Position numbers and translations under genes: made by a program. Positions 9,301-32,224 of a stretch of 64,000 bases of DNA are shown piece by piece; position 1 is the first letter of the stretch; each line of letters begins with the position of its first letter. Under the pieces are notes generated by a model that had not been told where the DNA came from, made no database searches, and was given only the letters and a program-made list of their open reading frames with translations. The DNA comes from an uncultured Pseudomonadales bacterium. Its GTDB lineage: Bacteria > Patescibacteriota > Microgenomatia > UBA1400 > UBA1396. The stretch lies in contig CAZEEI010000003.1 of NCBI GenBank assembly GCA_964511175.1, forward strand, positions 13,716 through 77,715. Direction: 5' to 3'.

Positions 9301-10533
9301 ATGGATATCTATAACACCTTAACACAATCGGTTGAAACCATTAGTAATCTACCAAACAAGAACAAATTTGGTGTTTATACTTGTGGTCCCACCGTTTACG
9401 ACTACGCCCACTTAGGTCATATGCGCAAGTACACTATGGATGACATTTTGCTGCGCACGCTGCGACTAGCCGGTTTTCCGGTTAAGCACGTTATGAACAT
9501 TACTGACGTCGGCCACCTGGTTTCTGATGCCGATACCGGCGAAGATAAAATGGAGAAAGGCGCCCGCCGGACGGGTAAAACCGTTTGGGAAGTGGCCAAG
9601 TTTTTTGAGGACGACTTCTGGCGTAAGTTTGATCTGATGGGTCTGATTCGCCCGGACATTGCGCCCCGCGCTACCGACCATATCCCGGAGCAGATCGAGT
9701 TAGTCCAAGCTTTGGAGAAAAATGGCTTCACCTACGTTATACCTGGCGATGGTGTGTATTTTGATACCAGTAAAGACCCACACTACGGTGAACTGGCCCA
9801 TCTTAAACTCAGTCAACAACAGGAGGGGGCGAGGATTGGTGTAGTTGAAGGTAAGCGCAATGCCAGCGATTTTGCCTTATGGAAGTTTTCACCTCAAGAT
9901 CAACAGCGACAAATGGAGTGGGAATCGCCTTGGGGGATTGGTTTCCCGGGTTGGCATATCGAATGTTCCGCTATGAGTATGAAATATTTGGGTTCGCAGT
10001 TCGCCCTACATACTGGTGGTATTGACCATATTCCCGTTCATCACCCTAACGAAATTGCTCAAGCCGAAAACGCCACCGGTAAAAGACCCTTTGTGCGTTA
10101 CTGGGTACACCACAACTTTTTGCGGATCGATGGACAAAAAATGAGTAAGTCTCTGCAGAACTTCTACACTTTGGAAGACATTGTGGCCAAAGGATTTTCA
10201 CCGATGGCTCTCAAATTGCTTTTCCTGCAGGCGCATTACCGTGACGAGCTGAACTTTACCTGGGACAGTTTGGCGGCGGCGCAAAAAGGTTACGAGCGGC
10301 TACAACGGCAGATCCAGAAATTACTGGCGGCGGCGGGTTACCAAAATCTCGAAGAAGTGCCAGATTTGGTGGGAGAACCATCGCCGGAACTGGCGCGCTT
10401 TATCGAGTTAATGGAAAATGACCTGAAGACGCCGCAGGCACTGGCGATCATGTGGGGAACGCTTAAGGGTGCCAGTTCAGCTGAGTTGCCGGATTTGAAG
10501 CGGATGTTGGGGTATTTTGGGTTAGAGGTATAG
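9301..10533 (+). CDS. cysS: Cysteinyl-tRNA synthetase (class I); short form of 410 aa
   Basis: HIGH-type motif (HLGHMR), KMSKS, and CysRS zinc-binding cysteines. Confidence 0.85.
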   Translation: MDIYNTLTQSVETISNLPNKNKFGVYTCGPTVYDYAHLGHMRKYTMDDILLRTLRLAGFPVKHVMNITDVGHLVSDADTGEDKMEKGARRTGKTVWEVAKFFEDDFWRKFDLMGLIRPDIAPRATDHIPEQIELVQALEKNGFTYVIPGDGVYFDTSKDPHYGELAHLKLSQQQEGARIGVVEGKRNASDFALWKFSPQDQQRQMEWESPWGIGFPGWHIECSAMSMKYLGSQFALHTGGIDHIPVHHPNEIAQAENATGKRPFVRYWVHHNFLRIDGQKMSKSLQNFYTLEDIVAKGFSPMALKLLFLQAHYRDELNFTWDSLAAAQKGYERLQRQIQKLLAAAGYQNLEEVPDLVGEPSPELARFIELMENDLKTPQALAIMWGTLKGASSAELPDLKRMLGYFGLEV

Positions 10534-10564
10534 TATTTTTGACCTTAACCTATGATATCTTGTG

Positions 10565-10578
10565 AATATCTAGATATT
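10565..10578 (+). promoter_or_regulatory. 14-bp palindrome AATATCTAGATATT in the hsdM upstream region; candidate operator
   Basis: Perfect core palindrome ATATCTAGATAT about 55 nt upstream of the hsdM start. The downstream HsdM carries an N-terminal HTH domain. Confidence 0.4.
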
Positions 10579-10633
10579 TACAAATCATATTTTTCTGCTA
10601 CAGTGAGCCCATGAGCAAACGAGCAGAAACAAT

Positions 10634-12340
10634 ATGAACAATTCCAACCAGCCCCAATCTCTCCTGTTAAGTATCGGTCAAGTAGCCAAAATCTTTGGTA
10701 TTCATCAAGATACCCTGAGGAATTGGGAAAAAAGGGGAATATTAACACCACTAAGGGTTGGGGCACGTAGAGATCGTCGTTACAAACAGGCAGACATTGA
10801 AAAGATTGTCGACAAAGACCTAGGCAGCTTGTTAGTCGAGATCAGCGAGCAAAAAATAACGCTCACGCAACTTAAACAATTTTTATGGAAAAGCGCCGAC
10901 ATTCTTAGGGGGAAAATCGACAGCAGTGATTATAAAAAGTACATCTTTGGGCTTTTATTTTACAAGCGAATCAGTGATACCTGGGACGAAGAATATCAGA
11001 TAACTCTGGATGAATATCATGATGAGGCGCTAGCCTTAGCTGACTATAATCACCGATTCCAAGTACCCAGGGATTGTCAGTGGTCAGTGATTACTGAGAC
11101 TTCAAAAAATATTGGGCAAAAACTAAACGACATTTTCGATAAGATTACTAATGTAAACAGCCCAAAACTAGATAAGATTTTTGCTGACCTTGACTTTGCC
11201 AACAAAGACCGCTTTCCAAATGAAACACTTCAACGACTAATTAACCACTTCTCTCAGTATAACTTTGGTAATACCTACATTAACTCTGATCTTCTAGGCG
11301 ATGCCTACGAGTACCTTATTGGCCAATTTGCAGCCGATGCAGGTAAGAAAGGCGGAGAATTCTATACCCCCCGCGAAGTTGAGCGCGTCATTATTAATAT
11401 TGTTAAGCCACATCAAAAGGACCACATCTATGACCCCACCGTAGGTTCAGGTGGCTTTCTTCTTGAGGCGTATAACTATCTTAAAAATAAGTCTGGAGAA
11501 CAGATTGCCCGCAGCCTATATCTCTATGGGCAAGAAATCAACCTCAGCACTTTTGCCATTGCCAAGATTAACATGTTCCTGCATGGACTGGATAGCGCCG
11601 ACATTAGGCGTGGTGATACACTGGCTAACCCGCAATTCCTTAACGATGTAGGCAATCTGCAAACCTTTGATATTGTTGTGGCTAATCCCCCATACTCCAT
11701 TAAGGATTGGGAGTTCGAACTATTCAAAAGTGACAAATATGGTCGAACGGAGGGTTTTGACCAGCCACCTAAAAAGAATGCTGATTACGCTTTTGTTCTC
11801 CATATTCTCAAGTCGATGAACGCCAATGGTCGGGCCGGGGTGGTATTACCGCACGGCGTTTTGTTTCGCGGCGGGAGTGAAGGGCGTATCCGTGAGCAAA
11901 TTATTAAAAGTGACCTTTTAGAGGCCATCGTGGCCCTGCCAGCTAAGCTATTCTATGGTACTGGTATTCCAGCCGCCATCCTGATCTTTAACAGAAACAA
12001 GCCGGAACATAAAAAGGGCAAGGTTCTCATTATTGATGGCGAACACGATTATTTGGAAGGTAAAAATCAAAATACGCTCAGGAAACAGGATATAGACAAA
12101 ATTGTTAAGGCTTATGACCAGTATGGGGATGCTGAAAAGTACGCCAAAGTAGTAGGTGTTAAAGAGATTGAAGAAAACGATTTCAACCTCAATGTCAGAC
12201 GCTACATTGACTCGACGGATGAGCAGGAAATGATTGATGTCAAGCAGGTTTGGAGTGAAATTAAACAGTTGGAAATAGAAAGAGACGAGATTGATAAAAA
12301 AGTGACAGGTTTTATTAAGGAGCTAGGCTATGACGATTAA
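10634..12340 (+). CDS. hsdM: Type I restriction-modification methyltransferase subunit HsdM, with an N-terminal MerR/excisionase-like HTH domain
   Basis: HTH at aa 10-60 (IGQVAKIFGIHQDTLRNWEKRG), then an HsdM_N-like helical domain and an N6-adenine methyltransferase with the NPPY motif (VVANPPYS). Confidence 0.9.
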   Translation: MNNSNQPQSLLLSIGQVAKIFGIHQDTLRNWEKRGILTPLRVGARRDRRYKQADIEKIVDKDLGSLLVEISEQKITLTQLKQFLWKSADILRGKIDSSDYKKYIFGLLFYKRISDTWDEEYQITLDEYHDEALALADYNHRFQVPRDCQWSVITETSKNIGQKLNDIFDKITNVNSPKLDKIFADLDFANKDRFPNETLQRLINHFSQYNFGNTYINSDLLGDAYEYLIGQFAADAGKKGGEFYTPREVERVIINIVKPHQKDHIYDPTVGSGGFLLEAYNYLKNKSGEQIARSLYLYGQEINLSTFAIAKINMFLHGLDSADIRRGDTLANPQFLNDVGNLQTFDIVVANPPYSIKDWEFELFKSDKYGRTEGFDQPPKKNADYAFVLHILKSMNANGRAGVVLPHGVLFRGGSEGRIREQIIKSDLLEAIVALPAKLFYGTGIPAAILIFNRNKPEHKKGKVLIIDGEHDYLEGKNQNTLRKQDIDKIVKAYDQYGDAEKYAKVVGVKEIEENDFNLNVRRYIDSTDEQEMIDVKQVWSEIKQLEIERDEIDKKVTGFIKELGYDD

Positions 12341-13154
12341 ACTAGTCATTTTTGAAGAAATCAAGCGCACCAATGAGTACCAATCAGAATATTGGTCGGC
12401 ACGGCAATTAGCCAGGGCTTTGGAGTATAAAGATTACCGCAATTTTGAAACGGTGCTTGGAAAAGCCAAAGAAGCGTGTAAAAACAGTGGTCAATCGGTA
12501 GAAGATCATTTCGGTGATGTCACCGACATGATCGAAGTCGGTAAAACTGCTTCACGAGAAATTAGTGATACCTATCTGTCCCGGTACGCTTGTTATTTGG
12601 TTGTACAAAATGCTGATCCGGCTAAAGAAATAGTCGCTTTGGGGCAAACCTATTTTGCGATCCAAACCAGAAAGCAAGAAGTTCAGGAGCAGCTTGTCGA
12701 AGATCAGAAACGATTGTTTTTGCGGGATGAAGTTACCACGCACAATAAACATCTGGCAGAAACGGCCTCTAAGGCTGGAGTGAAAAACTATGCTGTCTTT
12801 ACTAACTATGGCTATATGGGGTTATACGGTGGTTTGAAAGTGCAGGATCTCCACAAACAGAAGAGGCTTAAGAAGAGCCAGAAGATTTTAGATCACATGG
12901 GTAGTGAAGAGCTGGCAGCCAATTTATTCCGTGCTACTCAAACCGATGCCAAGATTAAGCGGGAGCAGATCCAAGGTGAGGCCAGAGCTAATCAAGCCCA
13001 TTTTGTTGTGGGCAGAAAGGTTAGGCAGACGATTGGAGAATTAGGCGGAACCATGCCGGAGAAGTTGCCAACTCCCGACGGGGTGGGACGGGCAAAGACT
13101 AGAGCTAATAAGTTGGCGGCGCAGAAGAGAAAAGAGTTGGAAAAGTCGACATGA
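12330..13154 (+). CDS. dinD: DinD/RhuM-family protein (DNA-damage-inducible protein D-like), embedded in the R-M operon
   Basis: Strong resemblance to DinD (..YWSARQLA..L.Y.D.RNF..VL.KA..AC..SG.....HF......YLSRYACYLVVQNADP..IALGQTYFAIQTR). Confidence 0.75.
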   Translation: MTIKLVIFEEIKRTNEYQSEYWSARQLARALEYKDYRNFETVLGKAKEACKNSGQSVEDHFGDVTDMIEVGKTASREISDTYLSRYACYLVVQNADPAKEIVALGQTYFAIQTRKQEVQEQLVEDQKRLFLRDEVTTHNKHLAETASKAGVKNYAVFTNYGYMGLYGGLKVQDLHKQKRLKKSQKILDHMGSEELAANLFRATQTDAKIKREQIQGEARANQAHFVVGRKVRQTIGELGGTMPEKLPTPDGVGRAKTRANKLAAQKRKELEKST

Positions 13155-14341
13155 AAAACCAAATGACAAGCAACTGGCAGGCAAAGCAAATTAAGGACTT
13201 GCTCGATTACGAGCGTCCTGATAAATATATTGTTGAAAACACATACTATATTGACTCAGGAACTCCAGTGCTGACCGCTAATAAATCCTTTATTTTGGGT
13301 TATACAGATGAAGAAACAGGTATCTACGATAATGTACCCGCAATAATTTTTGATGATTTTACAACAGACAGTAAATTTGTTGATTTTCCTTTCAAAGTTA
13401 AGTCATCCGCAATTAAAATTCTAAAAGAAAAAAGCAAAGAGGTGGATATAAGGTTTGTATTTGAGAGAATGAAATCCATCAATTTCCCTACAGGAAATCA
13501 TAAGCGATATTATATCTCTCAATACCAAAACATGAAGATTGCAGTACCCTCTTTGCCTATTCAGAAAAAAATATCCAACATTCTTTCTACTATTGATGAA
13601 GCTATTCAAAAAACGGATCAAATAATCAAAAAAACTAAAAAACTCAAGCAAGGGCTAATGAACGAATTACTAACGAAGGGTATTGGGCATAAAAAGTTTA
13701 AAAAGACAAAAATCGGTGAGATTCCTAAAAAGTGGAAAGTAACTTCTATTCTGGATTCTGATATACAAATCATTGACGGCGATAGAGGCCTTAGCTATCC
13801 CAACAAGAACGATTTTTCTAATGAAGGATATTGCTTATTCTTAAGCGCTAGAAATTTTATTGATGATCATTTTGATTTTAGAGAATACGTCTTTATTTCT
13901 AAAGAAAAAGATAATCAACTGAGAAAAGGCAAACTGAAAAAAGGGGATGTCGTTCTCACTACAAGAGGTACTGTTGGAAGTGTGGCAATTTATAATGATT
14001 CAGTTCCATTTGAGGACATTAGAATTAACTCAGGAATGTTAATTTTTCGTGCAGAGGGTGAAATCGACAATAATTTCCTTTATTTTTTACTAAAAAGTCC
14101 GTACTTTAAGGAAAGATATAATCAGTTGGGGTCTGGTTCAGCGCAACCTCAACTTCCGATTAGGAGTTTAAGAAATCTATTAATACCAATACCTACTATT
14201 GACGAACAGCGCGAAATAGCGAGCAAATTATCTTTTTTGGATTTAAAACATGATAAAGAAATTGCACAATTATTGAACTTAAAAATGCTTAAGAGTGGCT
14301 TGATGTACGATATTTTTAACCAGAAAGTACAAATTAACTAA
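13151..14341 (+). CDS. hsdS: Type I restriction-modification specificity subunit HsdS
   Basis: Two target-recognition domains separated by conserved coiled-coil spacers. Very AT-rich. Confidence 0.85.
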   Translation: MKNQMTSNWQAKQIKDLLDYERPDKYIVENTYYIDSGTPVLTANKSFILGYTDEETGIYDNVPAIIFDDFTTDSKFVDFPFKVKSSAIKILKEKSKEVDIRFVFERMKSINFPTGNHKRYYISQYQNMKIAVPSLPIQKKISNILSTIDEAIQKTDQIIKKTKKLKQGLMNELLTKGIGHKKFKKTKIGEIPKKWKVTSILDSDIQIIDGDRGLSYPNKNDFSNEGYCLFLSARNFIDDHFDFREYVFISKEKDNQLRKGKLKKGDVVLTTRGTVGSVAIYNDSVPFEDIRINSGMLIFRAEGEIDNNFLYFLLKSPYFKERYNQLGSGSAQPQLPIRSLRNLLIPIPTIDEQREIASKLSFLDLKHDKEIAQLLNLKMLKSGLMYDIFNQKVQIN

Positions 14342-14342
14342 T

Positions 14343-15215
14343 ATGAGTACATCAAGTAGATTTGACCAATTTTTAAGCAATATCAAACTAACATCTGATC
14401 AACTTGCCGATGCAAAGACTAAGTACGATGGAGTCTGTAAAAAAATACATGATCATTACTATTCGAGTGACTATGATGGTTCTACAAAACTACTTATTGG
14501 TTCTTATGGAAAGAGAACAAATATCCGTCCAGCACGAGATGTAGATGTGATTTTCATGCTTCCAGCCTCTGAATACAAACAATCAACAAATGATTATAAT
14601 TACCAGTCTTCTCTACTGCAAAAGATAAAACGCATTTTAGAAGAAAAATACCCCGATACTGACATTTGTGGCGATGGACCAGTTGTTGTCGTTAATTTTA
14701 GTAACAATCATTTTATTGAAGTAGTTCCTGCCATTGAGTTAACAAATGACAAATTTTATATTCCTTCTACAAGTAGTGGTGGCTACTGGAAGCTTGACGA
14801 CCCTCGAGCTTTATATAGGTTCATCAACGACTCAGACAATAACACCAACGGTAACACACGAAATCTTATCCGTATGATAAAAAAATGGCAGGACTCTTGT
14901 AATGTTCCAGTTAAGTCACTTGTTATAGAAATCAGAGCAGTATTATTTTTAATTGATTATGAATACAAAGATAAAGGTTCTACATACTATGACTGGATGA
15001 TTAGAGATTATTTCAAACAACTCATCGAGAAAACCAACAACACATATATTTTACCTGGATTAACCGAGAAAATTTATTACGGTGATGCTTGGAAATCAAA
15101 AGCAAAGACAGCTTATGCTCGTGCAATAAAAGCCTGTCAGTATGAGTCAGATAAAGAAGAAACATTAGCGGCCGAAGAATGGAAGAAAATATTCGGTGAA
15201 GACTATTGGTATTAA
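14343..15215 (+). CDS. cGAS/DncV-like (SMODS-type) Pol-beta superfamily nucleotidyltransferase
   Basis: hGSYGKRTNIRPARDVDVIFML gives the GS...DxD catalytic pattern, and a third acidic residue lies in the strand HFIEVVPA. The gene sits 1 nt after hsdS and is followed by an overlapping 2-TM partner. Confidence 0.65.
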   Translation: MSTSSRFDQFLSNIKLTSDQLADAKTKYDGVCKKIHDHYYSSDYDGSTKLLIGSYGKRTNIRPARDVDVIFMLPASEYKQSTNDYNYQSSLLQKIKRILEEKYPDTDICGDGPVVVVNFSNNHFIEVVPAIELTNDKFYIPSTSSGGYWKLDDPRALYRFINDSDNNTNGNTRNLIRMIKKWQDSCNVPVKSLVIEIRAVLFLIDYEYKDKGSTYYDWMIRDYFKQLIEKTNNTYILPGLTEKIYYGDAWKSKAKTAYARAIKACQYESDKEETLAAEEWKKIFGEDYWY

Positions 15216-15790
15216 ATATGGACAAAACAAATTTAGAAGTTATCAGGGAGTCTTTCGGCAAAGTTTGCTACTCTCACAAAACTCACGAAAAGGACTGCGA
15301 AATACAATCTAGGTACGCAACAATGGTGAAGTGGGTAAATATCGCTCTAATTGCCACCACGACAGGATCATTACTTAGCACATTGCTTGCTGATCAAAAC
15401 CTGATTGTTGTCAGTGCTATTTTTTCCTCCATCACGCTAGGTTTCAGCATTTTTCAAATCAGCTTTAATCCAGAAAAAAAGGCAGCGAGGTACAAACAGG
15501 TAGCTAACTCCCTGTGGCTTATTAGAGAAAAATACGTAAGCCTAATGGCCGATATTATTAACTCAAGTGTTAAGGAGAAAGAAATTATTAAACGCAGAGA
15601 CGAATTGATGAATGAACTTGATTTTCTTTATAAAGCTGCACCAAGCACCAGTAGCTCTGCATACGAAAAGGCTGGGGTTGCTCTACAGTTAAACGAGGAG
15701 CTTACATTTTCTGATAAAGAAATTAATCAATTCCTCCCAAATAGTTTGCATATTACGAGTCCAAAAAAGAATAAGCATTATGAAATTTAA
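15206..15790 (+). CDS. Two-transmembrane SLATT-like putative effector
   Basis: Two hydrophobic helices (WVNIALIATTTGSLLSTLL and LIVVSAIFSSITLGFSIFQISF) followed by a charged helical tail. Start and stop both overlap neighbouring genes, so it is translationally coupled to the nucleotidyltransferase and to hsdR. Confidence 0.55.
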   Translation: MVLNMDKTNLEVIRESFGKVCYSHKTHEKDCEIQSRYATMVKWVNIALIATTTGSLLSTLLADQNLIVVSAIFSSITLGFSIFQISFNPEKKAARYKQVANSLWLIREKYVSLMADIINSSVKEKEIIKRRDELMNELDFLYKAAPSTSSSAYEKAGVALQLNEELTFSDKEINQFLPNSLHITSPKKNKHYEI

Positions 15791-18719
15791 CGAACAGCAC
15801 ACCGTCGAAAATCATATCATCAAGTTTCTATCCATAACTCTTGGCTATGAGTACATCAAGCCAGAGGAGTTTGCCCTTTTGCGGGAGCTTGAAAACCAGT
15901 ATTTGGTTACTTCACACCTGGCAGAAGCCATTAAACAGATCAACAACCTAACCGATGATACCGAAGTGCAAAGTGTTATCAGAGAAATAAAGAAGATTGA
16001 CTCCAATGAGGGCTTCTTAGACCTGATGAGAAACGGGGTCAATCTCAAGGATCCTTCGACGGGCAAGACGAAGGATTACGCGGTTGTTGACGCCGACAAT
16101 CCCGAAAATAATCGTTTTGTCGTTACTAATCAATTTTATTTTGAAGGTAATCTGGAAAACATCAGAACCGATGTGATGGTTTTCTTGAATGGTATCCCTG
16201 TAGTCGATATCGAGGCCAAAAGCCCCACTGCCTCAACTAGTGTTAGTTACGAGAACGCCATTGGCCAGATCAAACGCTATGAGAGAGCGGCCATGAAACT
16301 CTTTTGGCCCAATATGTTTAATATAGCTACTGATGGATTAAAGACTGTTTATGGTACTACTTACGCCCCAGATCAGTATTTTCTGCAATGGCGTGATGAT
16401 GAGCTTGAAAAGAAACTAGGCAGACAATTAGAGATGACTTTGGCGGCACTATTGGACAAAGAGAGATTATTGGACATTATCAAGAACTTTATTCTTTTTG
16501 AACAAACCAAAGATGGCCGCATTAAAAAGATGGCTCGTTATCAGCAGTTAAGGGCCACCAATAAGATTCTGGAGCGAGTACGGGGTGGCGAAAAAAGACG
16601 TGGCTTAGTTTGGCATACTCAGGGTTCCGGCAAGTCACTCACGATGTTTTTCACTGCGTGGAAGCTAAGGTTTTCTAAAGAATTGAAGAATCCTAAGGTT
16701 TTTATATTAGTAGATCGAATTGACCTTGATGACCAGATTTATGACACGTTCGTCAATGCAGGCGGCACAAACGTTATACGAGTGACTTCTAGGCGTGATC
16801 TTCAGGAAAAAATCACCAATGATGAGCGAGGTATCTTTATCTCGACCATCGAAAAATTCAACGAACTGCCGCTTGATTTAGACAATCCTAATGAGAACAT
16901 TATTGTCCTTTCTGATGAAGCGCACCGGACTAACGAGGGTGTGGCGGCGATTAAATTGCGGGATTCTATGGGAAAGGCATTTTTCTTTGGCTTTACCGGT
17001 ACACCGATTGACAAAAAAACACTCAATACTCATCGTAATTTTGGTCAAGAGGGTGAGAGGTATTTGGATTATTACTCAATTCAGCAGGCTATTGATGATG
17101 GGGCAACCCTGCCGGTCACCTATGAAGCAAGGTTATCTAAATTTTTTATTAACGAGGATCGAATTGATGAGCAATTCGACGCAGTAACACAGGATCTCAG
17201 TGCAGAACAAAAACAGCTAATTATGAGGCGCTTTGGTAAGAAAGAGGCCTTGATCAAACTCGATCAACGGATGAGGATCATTGCTCAGGATATTATTGAT
17301 CACTATAGGCTTTATATTGAACCCAATGGTTTCAAAGCGCAAATTGTCTGCTATGACCGGGAAGAGACGGCTAAATATAAACAATTGCTGGATGAGCTGG
17401 TGTCCCCCGAATGTACGGCGGTGGTGTATTCATCTGGAGATCCAAATACAGATAGTGAGCGCTTGCGCGAGTACAACACGACTAAATCTCAGCGTGAACA
17501 GATAATTGCTTCTTTTAAGGATCCAAATAGTTCTCTCAAATTGCTTCTGGTCTGTGACATGCTTTTAACCGGTTTTGATGCGCCAATTGAGCAGGCAATG
17601 TACCTGGACAAGCCTCTAAGAGACCATAATTTACTACAAGCAATTGCTCGGACAAACCGTACTTATCCTCATAAGGGTTGTGGCAAAATTATTGACTACT
17701 ACGGCATTACGCGCAATCTCTATGATGCTCTTAATTTTGACGAGAGCATCATTGATTCAGCTTTGATTGATCTTGATTATTTGAAGCAGGAGTTTCTCGA
17801 AATACTGGGTGAAATTAAAGATATTTTTGTTGGCATCAATCAGGAAGATCCGTCCATCAACAACCTCAGAGTTTGTCTGAAAATTTTTATTGATAATGAG
17901 GATAAGCAGAGATTCTTTACCGACAAGTATTCCAGGATGAAGCTATTATTTGAGGTATTATCTCCCGATCCTTTCTTGGGTGAATATATTCGCATTTTTG
18001 AGTGGATTACTAGTGTTTATATTGCTTTTGTCAATGAGTTTCGATCGGAAAACTTGGCAATGAACGCTTTTAGGAATGGTGATATTCCCACTTTTGGTGA
18101 ATATGGGGAAAAAGTCAAAAAACTTATTCAAGACAATCTGGATTATGAGGGCATTACCAAAAACTTTCGAGAATTAAATATTAATGATATTTACACTCTC
18201 GAGCGTCTGGACAAAATGGATGATGAAGAAAAAGCACTAGCACTCGAAAAAATGCTCAGCCAGGAAATTACAGCCAATCTTGACACAGACCCCACTTTTC
18301 AGAAGTTTAGTGAAAGACTTAGAGCCATTCGTGAGGAGTTTGAGCATCATCAGATTGATCTTTCGGAACGAATTAAACGCTATTACGAGTTAATGAATGA
18401 CATTAAAAATAAAAATGACTTGGCTAAAGAACTGGGACTAAATCTGAGAGAATACGGTTTATATCTAATTTGTCAGGAATATATACCAGAAACTTCTCAA
18501 TCAGTGTTAACCGATTTATCTAGAGATTTGTCAAGAAGAATAGAATCAATTCTCGACGTAGATTGGCAAACCTCCTCAAAACGTGAGGAATTTTTGAAAG
18601 GTATTAAACAGGCAATACAAGAGGTTATTTTAAGGGATTATCGGGGAAGAATTAAAGTAGGTGCTTTCCCCAAAATGCTCAATAGGTTGGTGGATATAAC
18701 TTTTAAAAAATTTACCTAG
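15780..18719 (+). CDS. hsdR: Type I restriction enzyme R subunit HsdR
   Basis: SF2 helicase motifs (TQGSGKSLTMFF, DEAHR), the ResIII/HsdR family and a long C-terminal domain. Confidence 0.92.
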   Translation: MKFNEQHTVENHIIKFLSITLGYEYIKPEEFALLRELENQYLVTSHLAEAIKQINNLTDDTEVQSVIREIKKIDSNEGFLDLMRNGVNLKDPSTGKTKDYAVVDADNPENNRFVVTNQFYFEGNLENIRTDVMVFLNGIPVVDIEAKSPTASTSVSYENAIGQIKRYERAAMKLFWPNMFNIATDGLKTVYGTTYAPDQYFLQWRDDELEKKLGRQLEMTLAALLDKERLLDIIKNFILFEQTKDGRIKKMARYQQLRATNKILERVRGGEKRRGLVWHTQGSGKSLTMFFTAWKLRFSKELKNPKVFILVDRIDLDDQIYDTFVNAGGTNVIRVTSRRDLQEKITNDERGIFISTIEKFNELPLDLDNPNENIIVLSDEAHRTNEGVAAIKLRDSMGKAFFFGFTGTPIDKKTLNTHRNFGQEGERYLDYYSIQQAIDDGATLPVTYEARLSKFFINEDRIDEQFDAVTQDLSAEQKQLIMRRFGKKEALIKLDQRMRIIAQDIIDHYRLYIEPNGFKAQIVCYDREETAKYKQLLDELVSPECTAVVYSSGDPNTDSERLREYNTTKSQREQIIASFKDPNSSLKLLLVCDMLLTGFDAPIEQAMYLDKPLRDHNLLQAIARTNRTYPHKGCGKIIDYYGITRNLYDALNFDESIIDSALIDLDYLKQEFLEILGEIKDIFVGINQEDPSINNLRVCLKIFIDNEDKQRFFTDKYSRMKLLFEVLSPDPFLGEYIRIFEWITSVYIAFVNEFRSENLAMNAFRNGDIPTFGEYGEKVKKLIQDNLDYEGITKNFRELNINDIYTLERLDKMDDEEKALALEKMLSQEITANLDTDPTFQKFSERLRAIREEFEHHQIDLSERIKRYYELMNDIKNKNDLAKELGLNLREYGLYLICQEYIPETSQSVLTDLSRDLSRRIESILDVDWQTSSKREEFLKGIKQAIQEVILRDYRGRIKVGAFPKMLNRLVDITFKKFT

Positions 18720-24571: not shown

Positions 24572-24758
24572 TAATGTTGCGGGGCAAGGAATCGGACCTT
24601 GTCTGCGAGATTATGAGCCTCACGTGCAACCGTACACTACCCCGCGCGACAGGGACTTATTATAGCACAATGTTAAGGAATCCGGCGCCTACGGCCGCCA
24701 ACAATGGTGGTAATTGTTAGATTTAGGCCTAGTGTATCAAAATGACCAAAACCGATAG

Positions 24759-24857
24759 TTGTACAACTTACCTCGAGTCCAGTCTCAATAGAAAAGACCC
24801 CACCAGATTGTAGTTGTACAACTGTTGGTTTTGCCAATTTTGATATGTCGGCTCCGG
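24759..24857 (+). promoter_or_regulatory. Second copy of the TTGTACAA operator/promoter module (boxes at 24759 and 24824, then GGTTTTGCCAATTTTGATATG)
   Basis: The -10-like TGaTATG begins 20 nt after the last box. It lies upstream of the GT4 gene, whose GTG start is at 24886. Confidence 0.5.
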
Positions 24858-26011: not shown

Positions 26012-26620
26012 ATGATTGCCACTGCACCCGAACGAATTCGACTTGATTATTCTCTCGATCCGTTGAAGCAGGCCTTAGAGGCGTATTCTCCAGAACAGCT
26101 GCTGGTTTTATACCGCGGTCGCGACAAAGGTGCTGAAGAGGGCAGTAACTTAAACTGGACGATTGATCCGTTTTATGCTCTTTTTCACGCCGGAATATGG
26201 GGAGTGGATGATTATCCAGATAACTACGGCACACTAAGTTATACGGTTGCGCCGCTAACCAAAACAATCAGTTTTGATTCCCGTACCAGTTCTTACCGAA
26301 TCTTATCTTTACCATGGGGCAGCCGCCAATTAGTGCCTGGAGAAATACAGCGCTTATTAAACTGGCGAATTATTACTAGCCAGCAAGAAGCCCTGGTTGA
26401 GCCGGAACTGCGCCAAGCGATTGGTCGTGGTGGTGTAATTGGGGTTGATTGGCCCCAATCAGAAACCGCTAAAATCGAAGCCGATCGGCTTCGCTCACAA
26501 CTATTGTACCGCACGTTAATGTCGAATGACCCCTTGGCCGACCAAGCTTGGCAGCAAGTTCTACCAAACGCTTCACTTGATTTATTAAGATTAATTGCCG
26601 CCAAATATAATCAGCATTAA
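26012..26620 (+). CDS. Hypothetical protein
   Basis: 202-aa ORF with no recognised motif. Confidence 0.45.
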   Translation: MIATAPERIRLDYSLDPLKQALEAYSPEQLLVLYRGRDKGAEEGSNLNWTIDPFYALFHAGIWGVDDYPDNYGTLSYTVAPLTKTISFDSRTSSYRILSLPWGSRQLVPGEIQRLLNWRIITSQQEALVEPELRQAIGRGGVIGVDWPQSETAKIEADRLRSQLLYRTLMSNDPLADQAWQQVLPNASLDLLRLIAAKYNQH

Positions 26621-28059
26621 GGAGCAGGCACCGTAGCTGGTGTTGTGGCCGCCGCACCAGGTGTAGGCACCAGGCGCAAGTACATGACCGAATTAGCCGG
26701 CATAAATAAAGTAGTGGCCAACTCATCAGTCTCTGTAGACAGATCGACTTTACGCGAAGAACCGCCCAAATCGGTAATTTCCAGTTGATAGCTGCCAGGA
26801 AAGACGTTCTTAAAGGTAAGCGGTACGTTTTCTACGTGCGCAGCGTAACGGTCATAATTAGCCACTAACATTTCAGTAAAGAAGCCATTTTTGGTAGCCA
26901 AAGCCTTCACCCAGGTACCCCGACCATTAAGCTGGAGCACATTACCGCTAATCCGATTCATGAGGCGTAAGGCTAAATAACGCGGCTTAATATTGGCGCC
27001 AAACTCGTGGTTAGTCAGCAAACCCCAGCGCCCCCAACGTTCTTGACCCTTAGGATCCTTACCGTCTTCTACTTCAAAGACAAAACCACGGTCAATGGCT
27101 CCCACCATTTCAATACCGGCTGCTGCGGTATGAGCCGCACCCAAGTTGCCGTCATAACCGGCGTGATTATTACTATCATGACCAAACTCCGTGATGTGCA
27201 GTTGCAAGTTGGCCAGAGCTGGATTAGCGGCTTTCCATTCGTTGGCCAGAGCGAAATCCTTACGGAATTGTTCAATGTCCAAGTTATAACGATGCCAAGA
27301 GAAAAAGTCGAGCCGCAAGCCGTTCTCCTGAGTGTACTTAGTTAGGGTTCGAAACCAATTTTCATACAAGGCGGTAGTGGCAGGACCACCAAAACTATAC
27401 GGCTGGGCGTTTTTTACCTGGGCTCGGCCACGGTCAGCGTAACTGTAAAGGGTTAAGTAATTGCGGTCGCCGTAAGTTTTCCAACCGCCAAACAGGTCAG
27501 GCTCGTTCCATACTTCGTAAATAATGTTGGGAATTTTTTTATCACCCGAATAGTGCTGGATAGTGGCGCGAATGGTCTCCTGCCAGTATTCCCATTTTTG
27601 CGGCGGGCTGGTAATTTGGCCGTCGCTAGCAATGGTGGCTGGCATGTACGAAAGGGCGATATAGGGTTTGGCACCCGTGGCCAGGATATCGTCAATGAGA
27701 GGATCTAATTTGCTGAAGTCAAAACGCAAAGTTTCACCATCTTTTTGGACAATGTCGTAGAAGGAATAGATATGATCCAAACGGATATACTGCGGGTTTA
27801 AGGCACTAACTTTACCCTTAATGTCAGTTAGGCGCCAATTGCTCATTTCACCACCCTGAGCCAGATTTTGCCAAGGTTTAGTGAGTGGTCCAACTTCCTG
27901 GCGTACGTCGACTACTAAATTGGCGGGAGTACCGGAAGCGCCAGCCAAAAATTGACGTACTACTTTTAGTTGGGCAGCCCCCACGATTCCGGCTATGGCT
28001 ACTAAAATAACGGGCACAAGCTGCAAAAAAAGTTTCCAACGCGACACTAATCGAGGCAT
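26617..28059 (-). CDS. Membrane-anchored or secreted clan GH-A glycoside hydrolase (GH5/GH39-like)
   Basis: N-terminal TM/signal anchor, YEVWNEPD (acid/base) and ITEFG (nucleophile) motifs. Confidence 0.65.
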   Translation of the reverse strand: MPRLVSRWKLFLQLVPVILVAIAGIVGAAQLKVVRQFLAGASGTPANLVVDVRQEVGPLTKPWQNLAQGGEMSNWRLTDIKGKVSALNPQYIRLDHIYSFYDIVQKDGETLRFDFSKLDPLIDDILATGAKPYIALSYMPATIASDGQITSPPQKWEYWQETIRATIQHYSGDKKIPNIIYEVWNEPDLFGGWKTYGDRNYLTLYSYADRGRAQVKNAQPYSFGGPATTALYENWFRTLTKYTQENGLRLDFFSWHRYNLDIEQFRKDFALANEWKAANPALANLQLHITEFGHDSNNHAGYDGNLGAAHTAAAGIEMVGAIDRGFVFEVEDGKDPKGQERWGRWGLLTNHEFGANIKPRYLALRLMNRISGNVLQLNGRGTWVKALATKNGFFTEMLVANYDRYAAHVENVPLTFKNVFPGSYQLEITDLGGSSRKVDLSTETDELATTLFMPANSVMYLRLVPTPGAAATTPATVPAP

Positions 28060-28095
28060 AAATGCAGTTTACCTGTCCTGCGTAGCGCTTGGCAA

Positions 28096-28142
28096 GGGGT
28101 CAGACCCATGGCAGGGTCAGACCCTGCCATGGGTCTGACCCC
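28096..28142. repeat. 47-nt perfect palindrome, two 23-nt arms around a single central A, with core CCATGG
   Basis: GGGGTCAGACCCATGGCAGGGTC-A-GACCCTGCCATGGGTCTGACCCC. It is flanked by the outer inverted repeat TTGGCAAG (28089-28096) and CTTGCCAA (28153-28160). Confidence 0.8.
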
Positions 28143-28144
28143 TA

Positions 28145-28171
28145 ATAGCACTCTTGCCAAAATACTGCTAA
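28145..28171 (+). promoter_or_regulatory. CIRCE-like HrcA operator (aTAGCACTC-N9-tACTGCTAA)
   Basis: Matches the consensus TTAGCACTC-N9-GAGTGCTAA with about 3 mismatches, and lies about 20 nt upstream of hrcA. Confidence 0.7.
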
Positions 28172-28191
28172 TGAGTTAGAGTAGAGCCGCT

Positions 28192-28917
28192 ATGGTAGAT
28201 CTAACGGGACGCCAAATTCAAATCCTGCGGGCCATTGTCGAAAAGTACATGGAAACCGCCGAGGCGGTTGGTTCGGAAACTATCGACAAAAAGTTTAACT
28301 TTGGTGTTTCGCCGGCAACCATCCGTAATGAGATGGTTTATTTGGCCGAACAGGGTTATTTGCGCAAACCGCATAGTTCGGCGGGGCGTATTCCCACTTC
28401 CCAGGCTATCAAATTTTATGTCCGTGAGTTGATGCGTGAGAAAGATCTATCCGTGGCCGATGAAGTTTCGCTCAAAGAACGCATTTGGTCTAATCGCACG
28501 CAAGTAGCGGATCTTTTTAACGAAGCCGCTCACATTTTAGCCGAACGTGCCCGCTGTATCGGTCTGATTATGGACAGCGAAGATGGTCATTTGTACCACT
28601 CCGGCTACGCCCACATTCTGACTTTTCCCGAATTCGATAACATTGATGTGACTCGCACCGTGCTTACTCTCATCGAGGAGTTTCATGCCATGCAGGAAAT
28701 TTTCGATTACGCGCGTGGCGAGGAACCAGTTCACTTGGTACTGGGAGAGGACTTGGGCAATCAATATTTGGAACCGGTCGGTTTTGTCTTTACCGACGTC
28801 CAGGTTGGCAGTACTAAATATAACCTAAGCGTAATCGGACCGACGCGCATGGATTATGCTTACGTGATGCCGATGATGAAGTACTTCCGTGGCTTGATTG
28901 TGGAATTGATCGGTTAA
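28192..28917 (+). CDS. hrcA: Heat-inducible transcription repressor HrcA; short, 241 aa
   Basis: N-terminal winged-helix (LRAIVEKYMETAEAVGSETI...IRNEMVYLAEQGYL) in front of grpE-dnaK-dnaJ. Confidence 0.85.
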   Translation: MVDLTGRQIQILRAIVEKYMETAEAVGSETIDKKFNFGVSPATIRNEMVYLAEQGYLRKPHSSAGRIPTSQAIKFYVRELMREKDLSVADEVSLKERIWSNRTQVADLFNEAAHILAERARCIGLIMDSEDGHLYHSGYAHILTFPEFDNIDVTRTVLTLIEEFHAMQEIFDYARGEEPVHLVLGEDLGNQYLEPVGFVFTDVQVGSTKYNLSVIGPTRMDYAYVMPMMKYFRGLIVELIG

Positions 28918-31363: not shown

Positions 31364-32224
31364 ATGGCCACGAAGCGCGACTACTACGAGATCCTGGATG
31401 TGGCCAAATCGGCTACCGCCGCGGAGATTAAGAAAGCTTACCGCAAGCTGGCGCTGACGTACCACCCGGACCGCAACAAAGAGAAAGACGCCGAAGCTAA
31501 GTTTAAGGAAATTAATGAGGCCTACGAGGTTTTAAGCAACGAACAAAAACGTGCCGCTTACGACCGTTTTGGCCACGCGGCGTTTGATGCCGCGGCCGGT
31601 ATGGGCGGTAACCCGTTTGCGGGCGGCTCTCGCCAAGGTCCGTTTACTTACACTTATTCCACTGGCGGTGGATCGCCGTTTGGCCAAGACATGGGTTTTG
31701 ATTTCTCCGACCCGTTTGAGATTTTTGAACAGTTTTTTGGCGGCGGCTTTGCCGCCGCCCACCAACGCCGGCCGCGGTATTCACTGGCTATTTCTTTTGA
31801 AGAAGCAATGCGAGGTACGGAAAAGCACGTTACGATCGATGGTAAAAAGCACACGATCAAGGTTCCGGCTGGGGCTGATGACGGTACGCGGATTCGGTTT
31901 GAAAAATTTGATATTACGATTGAGGTGACACCGGATTCCCGTTGGCGCCGCGACGGTTATGATCTTTTTGCGGATACGGAAATTGACTTTTTTACCGCTG
32001 TTTTAGGTGGTGAAGCCCAGATTCCCACGCTGGACGGATCACTTAAGTTGAAGATTCGCCCTGGCACACAGTCACACACTCTGGTTCGCTTGCGCAGTAT
32101 GGGTGTGCCGCACCTGCGCGGCAGCGGCAAAGGCGATCTTTACGTGCGGCTGATGGTGAAAGTACCGGAAAAACTCACTCGTGAACAGAAAAAAGCCCTT
32201 GCTAATGCACAAAATCTTTTCTAA
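31364..32224 (+). CDS. dnaJ: J-domain co-chaperone (DnaJ/CbpA-type, lacking the Cys-rich zinc-finger domain)
   Basis: J domain with HPD (YHPDRN), a G/F-rich linker, and a C-terminal substrate-binding domain with no CxxCxGxG repeats. Confidence 0.8.

Follow-up and report, generated by a model that had tools for sequence, protein, structure and literature searches.

A perfect palindrome between the GH39 and hrcA promoters is probably a stray copy of a transposase-associated repeat

Results

The window, as we call the whole 64-kb stretch of DNA that was analysed, carries hrcA (28192–28917, plus strand) as the first gene of an hrcA-grpE-dnaK-dnaJ cluster. Divergent from it lies a gene for a GH39-family glycoside hydrolase (26617–28059, minus strand). 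HrcA is short (241 aa), as it is in all close homologues, and these homologues bear CPR/Patescibacteria names. DnaJ (31364–32224, 286 aa) has matches to the J and C-terminal domains, while a match to the zinc-finger domain is absent. Elsewhere in the window, a low-GC (0.37) defence island of the type I restriction-modification kind (10634–18719) encodes hsdM with a MerR-type HTH, a Bro-N protein, hsdS and hsdR; the last two are separated by an insertion that encodes a SMODS nucleotidyltransferase and a SLATT_4 two-helix effector. An inverted repeat of 34 nt at 24735–24845, 85% complementary, includes the perfect 12-bp palindrome AGTTGTACAACT twice (24757 and 24812). This repeat closely precedes a GT4 glycosyltransferase gene (24886) and may represent a pair of operators.

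The intergenic region between the GH39 gene and hrcA contains a CIRCE-like HrcA operator, read from the sequence at 28144–28170 on the plus strand as ATAGCACTC-N9-TACTGCTAA. The CIRCE consensus is TTAGCACTC-N9-GAGTGCTAA. A promoter scan found exactly two sigma-70-like sites, one per strand and divergent. The predicted GH39 promoter (28066–28095, minus strand) consists of TTGCCA (28095–28090), an 18-nt spacer and TAAACT (28071–28066), followed after 6 nt by the ATG at 28059. The predicted hrcA promoter (28154–28182, plus strand) consists of TTGCCA (28154–28159), a 17-nt spacer and TAGAGT, with the ATG 9 nt further on. Its −35 box sits within the 9-nt CIRCE spacer, an unusual overlap of operator and promoter that is conserved in the clade.

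Between the two −35-like boxes, a repeat search of the window identified a 49-nt palindrome (28095–28143), whose 24-nt arms (28095–28118 and 28120–28143) are 100% complementary and separated by 1 nt. The first-pass annotation had described a perfect palindrome of 47 nt built around a CCATGG core. It was right about the perfection, but the element is one pair longer, and CCATGG occurs twice (28106–28111 and 28127–28132), in both cases in a spacer and not at the centre. Internally, the palindrome is made of three copies of the 11-nt mini-palindrome GGGTCNGACCC with a period of 17 nt. Unit 1 (GGGTCAGACCC, 28097–28107) pairs with unit 3 (GGGTCTGACCC, 28131–28141), and unit 2 (GGGTCAGACCC, 28114–28124) is self-complementary and forms the palindrome centre, GGGTC-A-GACCC. 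The 6-nt spacers between the units, ATGGCA and TGCCAT, are reverse complements of each other.

The palindrome ends 48 nt upstream of the hrcA ATG and, as first described, directly abuts the CIRCE-like element. It had also been seen as nested inside an outer 8-bp inverted repeat. The two 8-mers are present (TTGGCAAG at 28089–28096 and CTTGCCAA at 28153–28160), but they are better explained as the divergent −35-like hexamers than as part of the element: the left one is the −35 box of the predicted GH39 promoter and the right one contains that of hrcA. Both promoters, predicted from consensus and conservation, are sited outward of the palindrome, so it is probably not transcribed.

The palindrome is not due to chance. 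As single-stranded DNA, the region folds with −32.1 kcal/mol, compared to −10.7 ± 2.4 kcal/mol for shuffled sequences (n = 200; z = −8.85), and the RNA fold of the palindrome region reaches −50.6 kcal/mol. When the two-unit pattern was searched with up to three mismatches, the window held no other match and none of 100 shuffles gave one. An assembly artefact was rejected because the Logan assembly of SRR8925802, an independent assembly that probably used the same reads, is identical over 261 nt, and because both flanks run on into normal genes.

We compared the same locus in six relatives whose HrcA proteins are 76–88% identical (L002, L003, L004, L005, L251 and L252). The CIRCE-like element and the plus-strand hexamers were kept in all of these except L252, where the intergenic region is only 60 nt long and both the CIRCE and the promoter hexamers are degenerate. 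The hrcA promoter of the relatives reads TTGCCA, TTGATA, TTGCTA or TTGACT, then 17 nt, then TAAAGT, TAGAGT, TACAGT or TATAAC. The minus-strand layout (−35 box, 18 nt, TAAACT or TACACT, 6 nt, ATG) was also kept in L002 and L251. The minus-strand −35 hexamer of the relatives is TTGAAC or TTGCTT, so there is no outer inverted repeat there. No conserved alternative promoter was found upstream of CIRCE at the relatives' hrcA loci.

The GH39 −10 box is always 6 nt from its ATG and the hrcA −10 box 7–11 nt from its own (window, L002 and L251), and both mRNAs are predicted to be leaderless or near-leaderless (window 28059–28095 and 28154–28192; L002, L251). The promoters and near-leaderless starts are inferred from consensus and conservation, and an AGGA that directly follows the putative −10 box in some relatives could instead be a ribosome-binding site.

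The palindrome itself was absent from the loci of all six relatives, in which not even one unit was present, and about 75 kb of sequence from these relatives contained no units. The distance from the minus-strand −35 box to CIRCE is 7 bp in L002 (GCAGGGG), 9 bp in L251 and 47 bp in the window, and the two −35 boxes are 58 bp apart in the window versus 18 bp in relatives. This comparison points to a lineage-specific gain of about 40 bp at a place where no conserved signal is broken. The spacer is too diverged, even in the nearest of the six relatives, for an empty site or a target-site duplication to be defined. In L005, a small gene with a Tad4-family Pfam match (9519–9845) is inserted between the GH39 gene and hrcA; after it comes a hairpin with a T-run that resembles a terminator (GGACCCCG...CGGGGTCC).

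Next, we searched public genome contigs for the pattern GGGTCNGACCC-N6-GGGTCNGACCC, which holds 20 specified bases in the 17-nt register. We found at least 120 matches, where by our own estimate chance would give about 0.5–9 in 596 Gb. Among the matches listed, genomes with many copies included the Parapusillimonas JC17 chromosome (many 8-kb blocks) and Duganella species; other listed hosts included Rugamonas, Marinobacter, Ferrovum, several Actinomycetota, Vicinamibacterales, Planctomycetia, Bacteroidota and Lachnospiraceae. Copies are likewise present in CPR MAGs of Woesebacteria (L014) and Curtissbacteria (L254). One matching MAG is labelled Bathyarchaeia, and its neighbouring genes look bacterial. 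A narrower pattern that excluded the G/C-closed form was used on metagenome contigs, where the unit pair was likewise far more frequent than chance would give, and the matches listed included many low-GC contigs and 0.1-µm groundwater fractions. A phage origin was rejected since the viral collection gave only 5 matches to the pattern.

The common form of the repeat is a hairpin, [A/G]GGGTC-N-GACCC[T/C] followed by a loop of about 4 nt and the complementary arm. Across 288 distinct copies, the central N of one arm is complementary to that of the other in 226; the two are the same base in 51 copies and differ in some other way in the remaining 11. Pairing is seen at the spacer ends in 239 copies and between the bases immediately outside the units in 257. 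Three-unit arrays like that of the window also occur in L132, L162, L180 (the same sequence as L029) and L190, and the one in L162, an unrelated contig, forms a perfect nested palindrome of 57 nt that is built like the window copy. In the Candidatus Woesebacteria MAG, a 28-nt perfect two-unit palindrome (L014:2938–2965) lies between two divergent tRNA genes, one of which has its 5' end 10 nt away, a divergent context like that of the window copy. This context is a minority one, found for 5 of 32 intergenic low-GC copies, which we count against reading the window copy as a repeat; REPs between divergent genes are likewise in the minority (PMC3733652).

Rfam gave nothing at gathering score: the window returned generic hairpin models (miRNA precursors) far below their cut-offs, and eight loci of the family returned tRNAs only. 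A literature search with the 11-mer and a 13-mer retrieved unrelated primer and viral matches only, and a keyword search on CPR and in-frame palindromes retrieved nothing specific.

The surroundings of the repeat in other genomes connect it to a Y1/HUH transposase. An ORF of 216–232 aa is enclosed by two hairpins, about 700 nt from each other, in L180, L071 and L132. In flanking copies of the repeat the spacing between units ranges from 13 to 17 nt. The ORF scores above the Pfam Y1_Tnp cut-off and contains the motifs PNHFHLL (HUH; NHFH), FQ and RYIHLNP (Y[IV]HLNP). Its best NCBIfam match is the REP-associated tyrosine transposase (E = 1e-10 to 1e-12), and in the PDB it matches ISDra2 TnpA weakly (E = 0.6). 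An HMM built from these ORFs detected 14 ORFs at 11 distinct loci among about 245 loci that had been picked by DNA pattern only. All but one have units no more than 400 nt away, usually on both sides. In other genomes (L180 (=L029), L071 (=L231), L132, L250, L152 (=L194), L205, L235, L160, L079, L015 and L254), GGGTCNGACCC flanks the Y1/HUH gene in inverted orientation, which shows what the unit is, not that an enzyme of this kind moved the copy in the window. More than 7,000 proteins belong to this large family at E ≤ 1e-20, and its named members include Candidatus Levybacteria, Curtissbacteria and 'Patescibacteria group'. In Curtissbacteria GCA_030647775.1, the Y1 gene is bracketed by single units, TAGGGTCCGACCCTA and TAGGGTCGGACCCT.

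The motif set and length of the ORF fit a known enzyme group. TnpAY1 subclass 2.1, which corresponds to RAYT group 1, has the motifs NH[YF]H, FQ and Y[IV]HLNP and a median length of 238 aa (PMC6006769, PMC5581495). Enzymes of this kind were named TIRYTs by Di Nocera et al. (2013, PMC3733652). The TIRs that flank TIRYT genes share the motif GGGGWSAS; they are sometimes self-complementary, can form dimers or clusters, and are repeated to a moderate degree (PMC3733652). We would place the ORF in TnpAY1 subclass 2.1/RAYT group 1/TIRYT. The window palindrome has the TIRYT motif in its arms: GGGGTCAG, an exact GGGGWSAS match, stands at the left end (28096–28103, plus strand) and at the right end (28135–28142, minus strand). 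In total, GGGGWSAS occurs 6 times in the window versus 10.5 expected, and elsewhere it is at or below chance level. REP-like neighbours of subclass 2.1 genes were reportedly not found (Quentin et al., 2018, PMC6006769), and mobility of TIRYT-associated repeats has never been shown experimentally (PMC3733652, PMC6006769).

We found neither a second copy of the palindrome in the 64-kb window, including with up to three mismatches, nor degenerate copies in relaxed searches of it. Tblastn and HMM searches of the window gave no Y1 transposase homologue, and the less than 3 kb beyond the window ends that Logan contigs cover contained no units and no transposase homologue. One Patescibacteria contig, L256, has two related Y1 genes (9880–10830 and 16500–17440) with other flanking palindromes: GGTTTAACC-type units at one gene and CCACCTCTAAGGTGG hairpins at the other. 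This difference suggests that each enzyme has its own matched repeat.

Copies of the hairpin are also found inside genes. In the low-GC metagenome contigs, 38 of about 82 copies (roughly half) lie within long ORFs; counts for high-GC contigs were set aside, as long spurious ORFs are common at high GC. Ten host ORFs were checked against Pfam and all are genuine housekeeping genes, namely those for CysRS, LeuRS, IleRS, MiaA, TsaD, RecJ, a P-type ATPase, a methyltransferase and two others. The in-frame copies (among them L162:4412–4456, L172:6007, L229:3641, L199:1020, L187:2444, L195:2406, L227:6459, L193:6484, L238:3653 and L254:14032) use all three frames, reading G-S-D-P, R-V-[R/G]-P or G-x-T-L, so the peptide is apparently not what is selected. 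The three-unit palindrome of L162 translates as RVRPSSGSDPDEGLTL.

Several of these in-gene copies could be placed on known proteins. L193 and L238 are diverged RecJ orthologues with a copy at the identical site. In the MiaA-like ORF of L227 (6237–7205), the hairpin supplies ten codons (GSDPREGQTL), which in an alignment with solved MiaA structures fall on the segment ...AEEMDGVPH..., and the net length change relative to these structures is only +1 residue. The IleRS copy in L229 presumably occupies the place of the usual RRFW segment. The MiaA and IleRS copies seem to have taken the place of native sequence and not merely to have been added to it. Even the Y1 transposase genes contain units or hairpins in frame, read as GSDP (L250:1698–2474; L254:10160 and 10430), located just after the RYIHxNP tyrosine motif and in an N-terminal loop.

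Discussion

The GH39-hrcA intergenic region of the window thus holds a perfect palindrome made of a unit that is dispersed in many other genomes, that pairs as hairpins there and flanks Y1 genes, and that is missing from the orthologous promoters. We propose that the palindrome is a stray copy of a TIRYT/RAYT group 1-associated palindromic repeat that lies between two promoters and has no dedicated heat-shock role, and we give this reading a probability of about 0.7. The assignment of the window copy to the family would follow from its unit sequence, whereas repetition and the cognate enzyme are known from other genomes. A miniature repeat element had been one of the options offered in the first-pass annotation, and it gains from the recurrence of this 11-nt unit, with its 17-nt register, across many other genomes and around Y1 genes. 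The annotation had further held that copies scattered in unrelated contexts would speak against a role specific to hrcA. Such copies are plentiful in other genomes, and they do argue against that role, but in the window the element is confined to one locus. An hrcA-specific role is not supported.

According to this proposal, the palindrome would be a short non-autonomous repeat whose unit GGGTCNGACCC, with the outer motif GGGGWSAS, serves as the cognate DNA of a Y1/HUH transposase of RAYT group 1, that is, TnpAY1 subclass 2.1 or TIRYT. If it works as IS200/IS605 TnpA and E. coli RAYT do, the enzyme would recognise a hairpin in single-stranded DNA and cut and rejoin beside it. We infer that a copy deposited or seeded by such an enzyme entered the 7–9-bp gap between the back-to-back −35 boxes of GH39 and hrcA, where some 40 extra bp would leave every conserved signal intact. 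Fold-back (inverted) duplication, with the self-complementary middle unit as its pivot, is the probable origin of the three-unit perfect palindrome. In all likelihood the element is transcriptionally silent, and any effect would be a side effect, for example promoters moved apart or a cruciform extruded.

Among known systems, the closest likeness is to the TIRs of TIRtrons (PMC3733652, PMC6006769, PMC5581495), with which the family shares the outer GGGGWSAS motif, self-complementary arms and the tendency to form dimers and clusters; in 11 loci, moreover, Y1 genes with subclass 2.1 motifs are enclosed by the identical unit. In contrast to those TIRs, the window copy is solitary, with no transposase gene within 64 kb; its host is of the CPR/Patescibacteria type, a group outside those complete-genome surveys; and the unit is 11–13 nt, shorter than the 'long TIRs'.

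The classical REP/REPIN-RAYT systems of E. coli and Pseudomonas are also similar, in their short GC-rich palindromes, inverted doublets able to form a longer hairpin, an HUH/Y1 enzyme encoded once and situated between its own repeats, and occasional copies within genes. Unlike these, the repeat described here lacks the GTAG or CGTC tag at the stem, and its enzyme scores 40–47 bits against the NCBIfam RAYT equivalog cut-off of 80. A classical tagged REP was rejected for the window copy, where the sequence passes from ...GGCAAG into GGGG at one end and from CCCC into TAATAG at the other and the nearest GTAG (28082–28085) is about 10 nt off. The unit is also common to several phyla, whereas REPs are described as species-specific (PMC6006769).

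The subterminal hairpins of IS200/IS605 elements belong with enzymes of the same superfamily (Pfam Y1_Tnp) and presumably share recognition of a single-stranded hairpin; they differ in that the present family has no tnpB and no IS-like multi-copy gene, and its hairpin repeats are dispersed alone. Rickettsia palindromic elements, of which RPE-1 measures roughly 100–150 nt, offer a parallel for the copies within genes. Like these elements and intragenic REPs (PMC3733652), the family occurs in frame in housekeeping genes, including those for tRNA synthetases, and in any of the three frames; unlike the Rickettsia elements, its copies are much shorter (about 30 nt or 10 codons), and the window copy is intergenic.

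Other classes were considered for the window palindrome and rejected. A MITE derives from a DDE insertion sequence that has lost its transposase and would show terminal inverted repeats and a target-site duplication; here no direct repeat flanks the palindrome and the whole element consists of the two arms. For an intrinsic terminator, there is no terminator-like site in 27800–28400 and no T-run, and both genes point away. Tn3-family inverted repeats start GGGGTCTGAC; the match stops at 10 nt, the context is not Tn3-like, and the motif is better accounted for by the link to TIRYTs. The CtsR heptad operator is made of GGTCAAA repeats, to which neither spacing nor sequence fits, and the element is not conserved.

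We next consider the explanations that compete with a stray repeat copy. In the first, which we regard as doubtful, the palindrome is a co-opted DNA element, either a promoter spacer or insulator or a supercoil-dependent cruciform beside CIRCE. As a spacer it would push the promoters apart by about 40 bp and so end the competition between two RNA polymerases; as a cruciform it would add a temperature or supercoiling input to hrcA. Its position exactly between the −35 boxes and against CIRCE, the greater separation of these boxes than in relatives, and the very strong stem potential of a perfect palindrome with 24-bp arms would all suit such a function, and divergent transcription generates negative supercoiling between promoters. 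Co-option is also compatible with a repeat origin. Set against it, the element is kept in no relative and so is not ancestral to hrcA control, and its perfect arms fit a recent origin equally well as selection.

A more far-reaching version of the same idea is highly doubtful in our judgement. It would make GGGTCNGACCC and group-1 RAYT/TIRYT a single cross-phylum system, in frame in the essential genes of small CPR-like genomes, with the window copy co-opted as a supercoil-sensitive cruciform spacer that uncouples the near-leaderless promoters and adds a topology or temperature input to HrcA/CIRCE.

A local accident that involved no transposase, in the form of a fold-back or template-switch duplication with a coincidental likeness to the widespread unit, seems to us very unlikely. 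Perfect arms are typical of template-switch events, and the window has neither a transposase nor a second copy. Yet such an accident would have to produce three exact units of 10 specified bases each, in the 17-nt register and with GGGGWSAS at both ends, an implausible coincidence given that no shuffle reproduced the pattern, and the relatives hold no proto-unit at the orthologous site from which it could have started.

The annotation had also raised a binding site for a second regulator. A transcription factor dimer would bind each GGGTC-N-GACCC, three in a row, and co-regulate GH39 and hrcA, as might be expected of three 11-bp sites with dyad symmetry that are set at even intervals between divergent promoters; the Woesebacteria copy likewise lies between divergent genes. 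We consider this most improbable. Conservation lends it no support, since the sites are absent from the orthologous promoters of L002, L003, L004, L005, L251 and L252, and units occur in coding sequences and around transposase genes of unrelated organisms. The 13–17-nt spacing and the covariation of the arms fit a hairpin better than fixed double-stranded sites. The CIRCE operator itself is an inverted repeat in the same promoter, directly adjacent to the palindrome, but the two sequences are unrelated, and CIRCE is conserved in relatives while the palindrome is not conserved with hrcA.

The remaining suggestion of the first-pass annotation, an RNA hairpin in the hrcA leader that acts on mRNA stability or as a thermosensor, is extremely unlikely despite the great stability of the stem as RNA: the plus strand has no promoter-like site upstream of the palindrome and the only such site conserved in relatives (TTGCCA-17-TAGAGT, in CIRCE) is downstream of it, so that the predicted transcript would start beyond the stem; the upstream gene is on the opposite strand, which precludes read-through; and the stem pairs only with itself, excludes the start codon and any ribosome-binding site, would not melt at physiological temperature with its perfect 23–24 bp, and is absent from relatives.

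A stray copy of the TIRYT/RAYT group 1-associated repeat remains our preferred reading, and it makes this locus a caution: a striking palindrome beside a well-known operator appears to be a lineage-specific passenger, and should not be read as part of the heat-shock circuit without transcription-start data. The family ties the RAYT group 1/subclass 2.1 enzymes, for which one survey reported finding no REP-like partners (PMC6006769), to a concrete and very short cognate palindrome. This palindrome is common to distant phyla (Burkholderiales, Actinomycetota and CPR bacteria), and in low-GC contigs the repeats often lie in frame within essential genes. If confirmed, the family could lend itself well to studies of repeat seeding by HUH enzymes.
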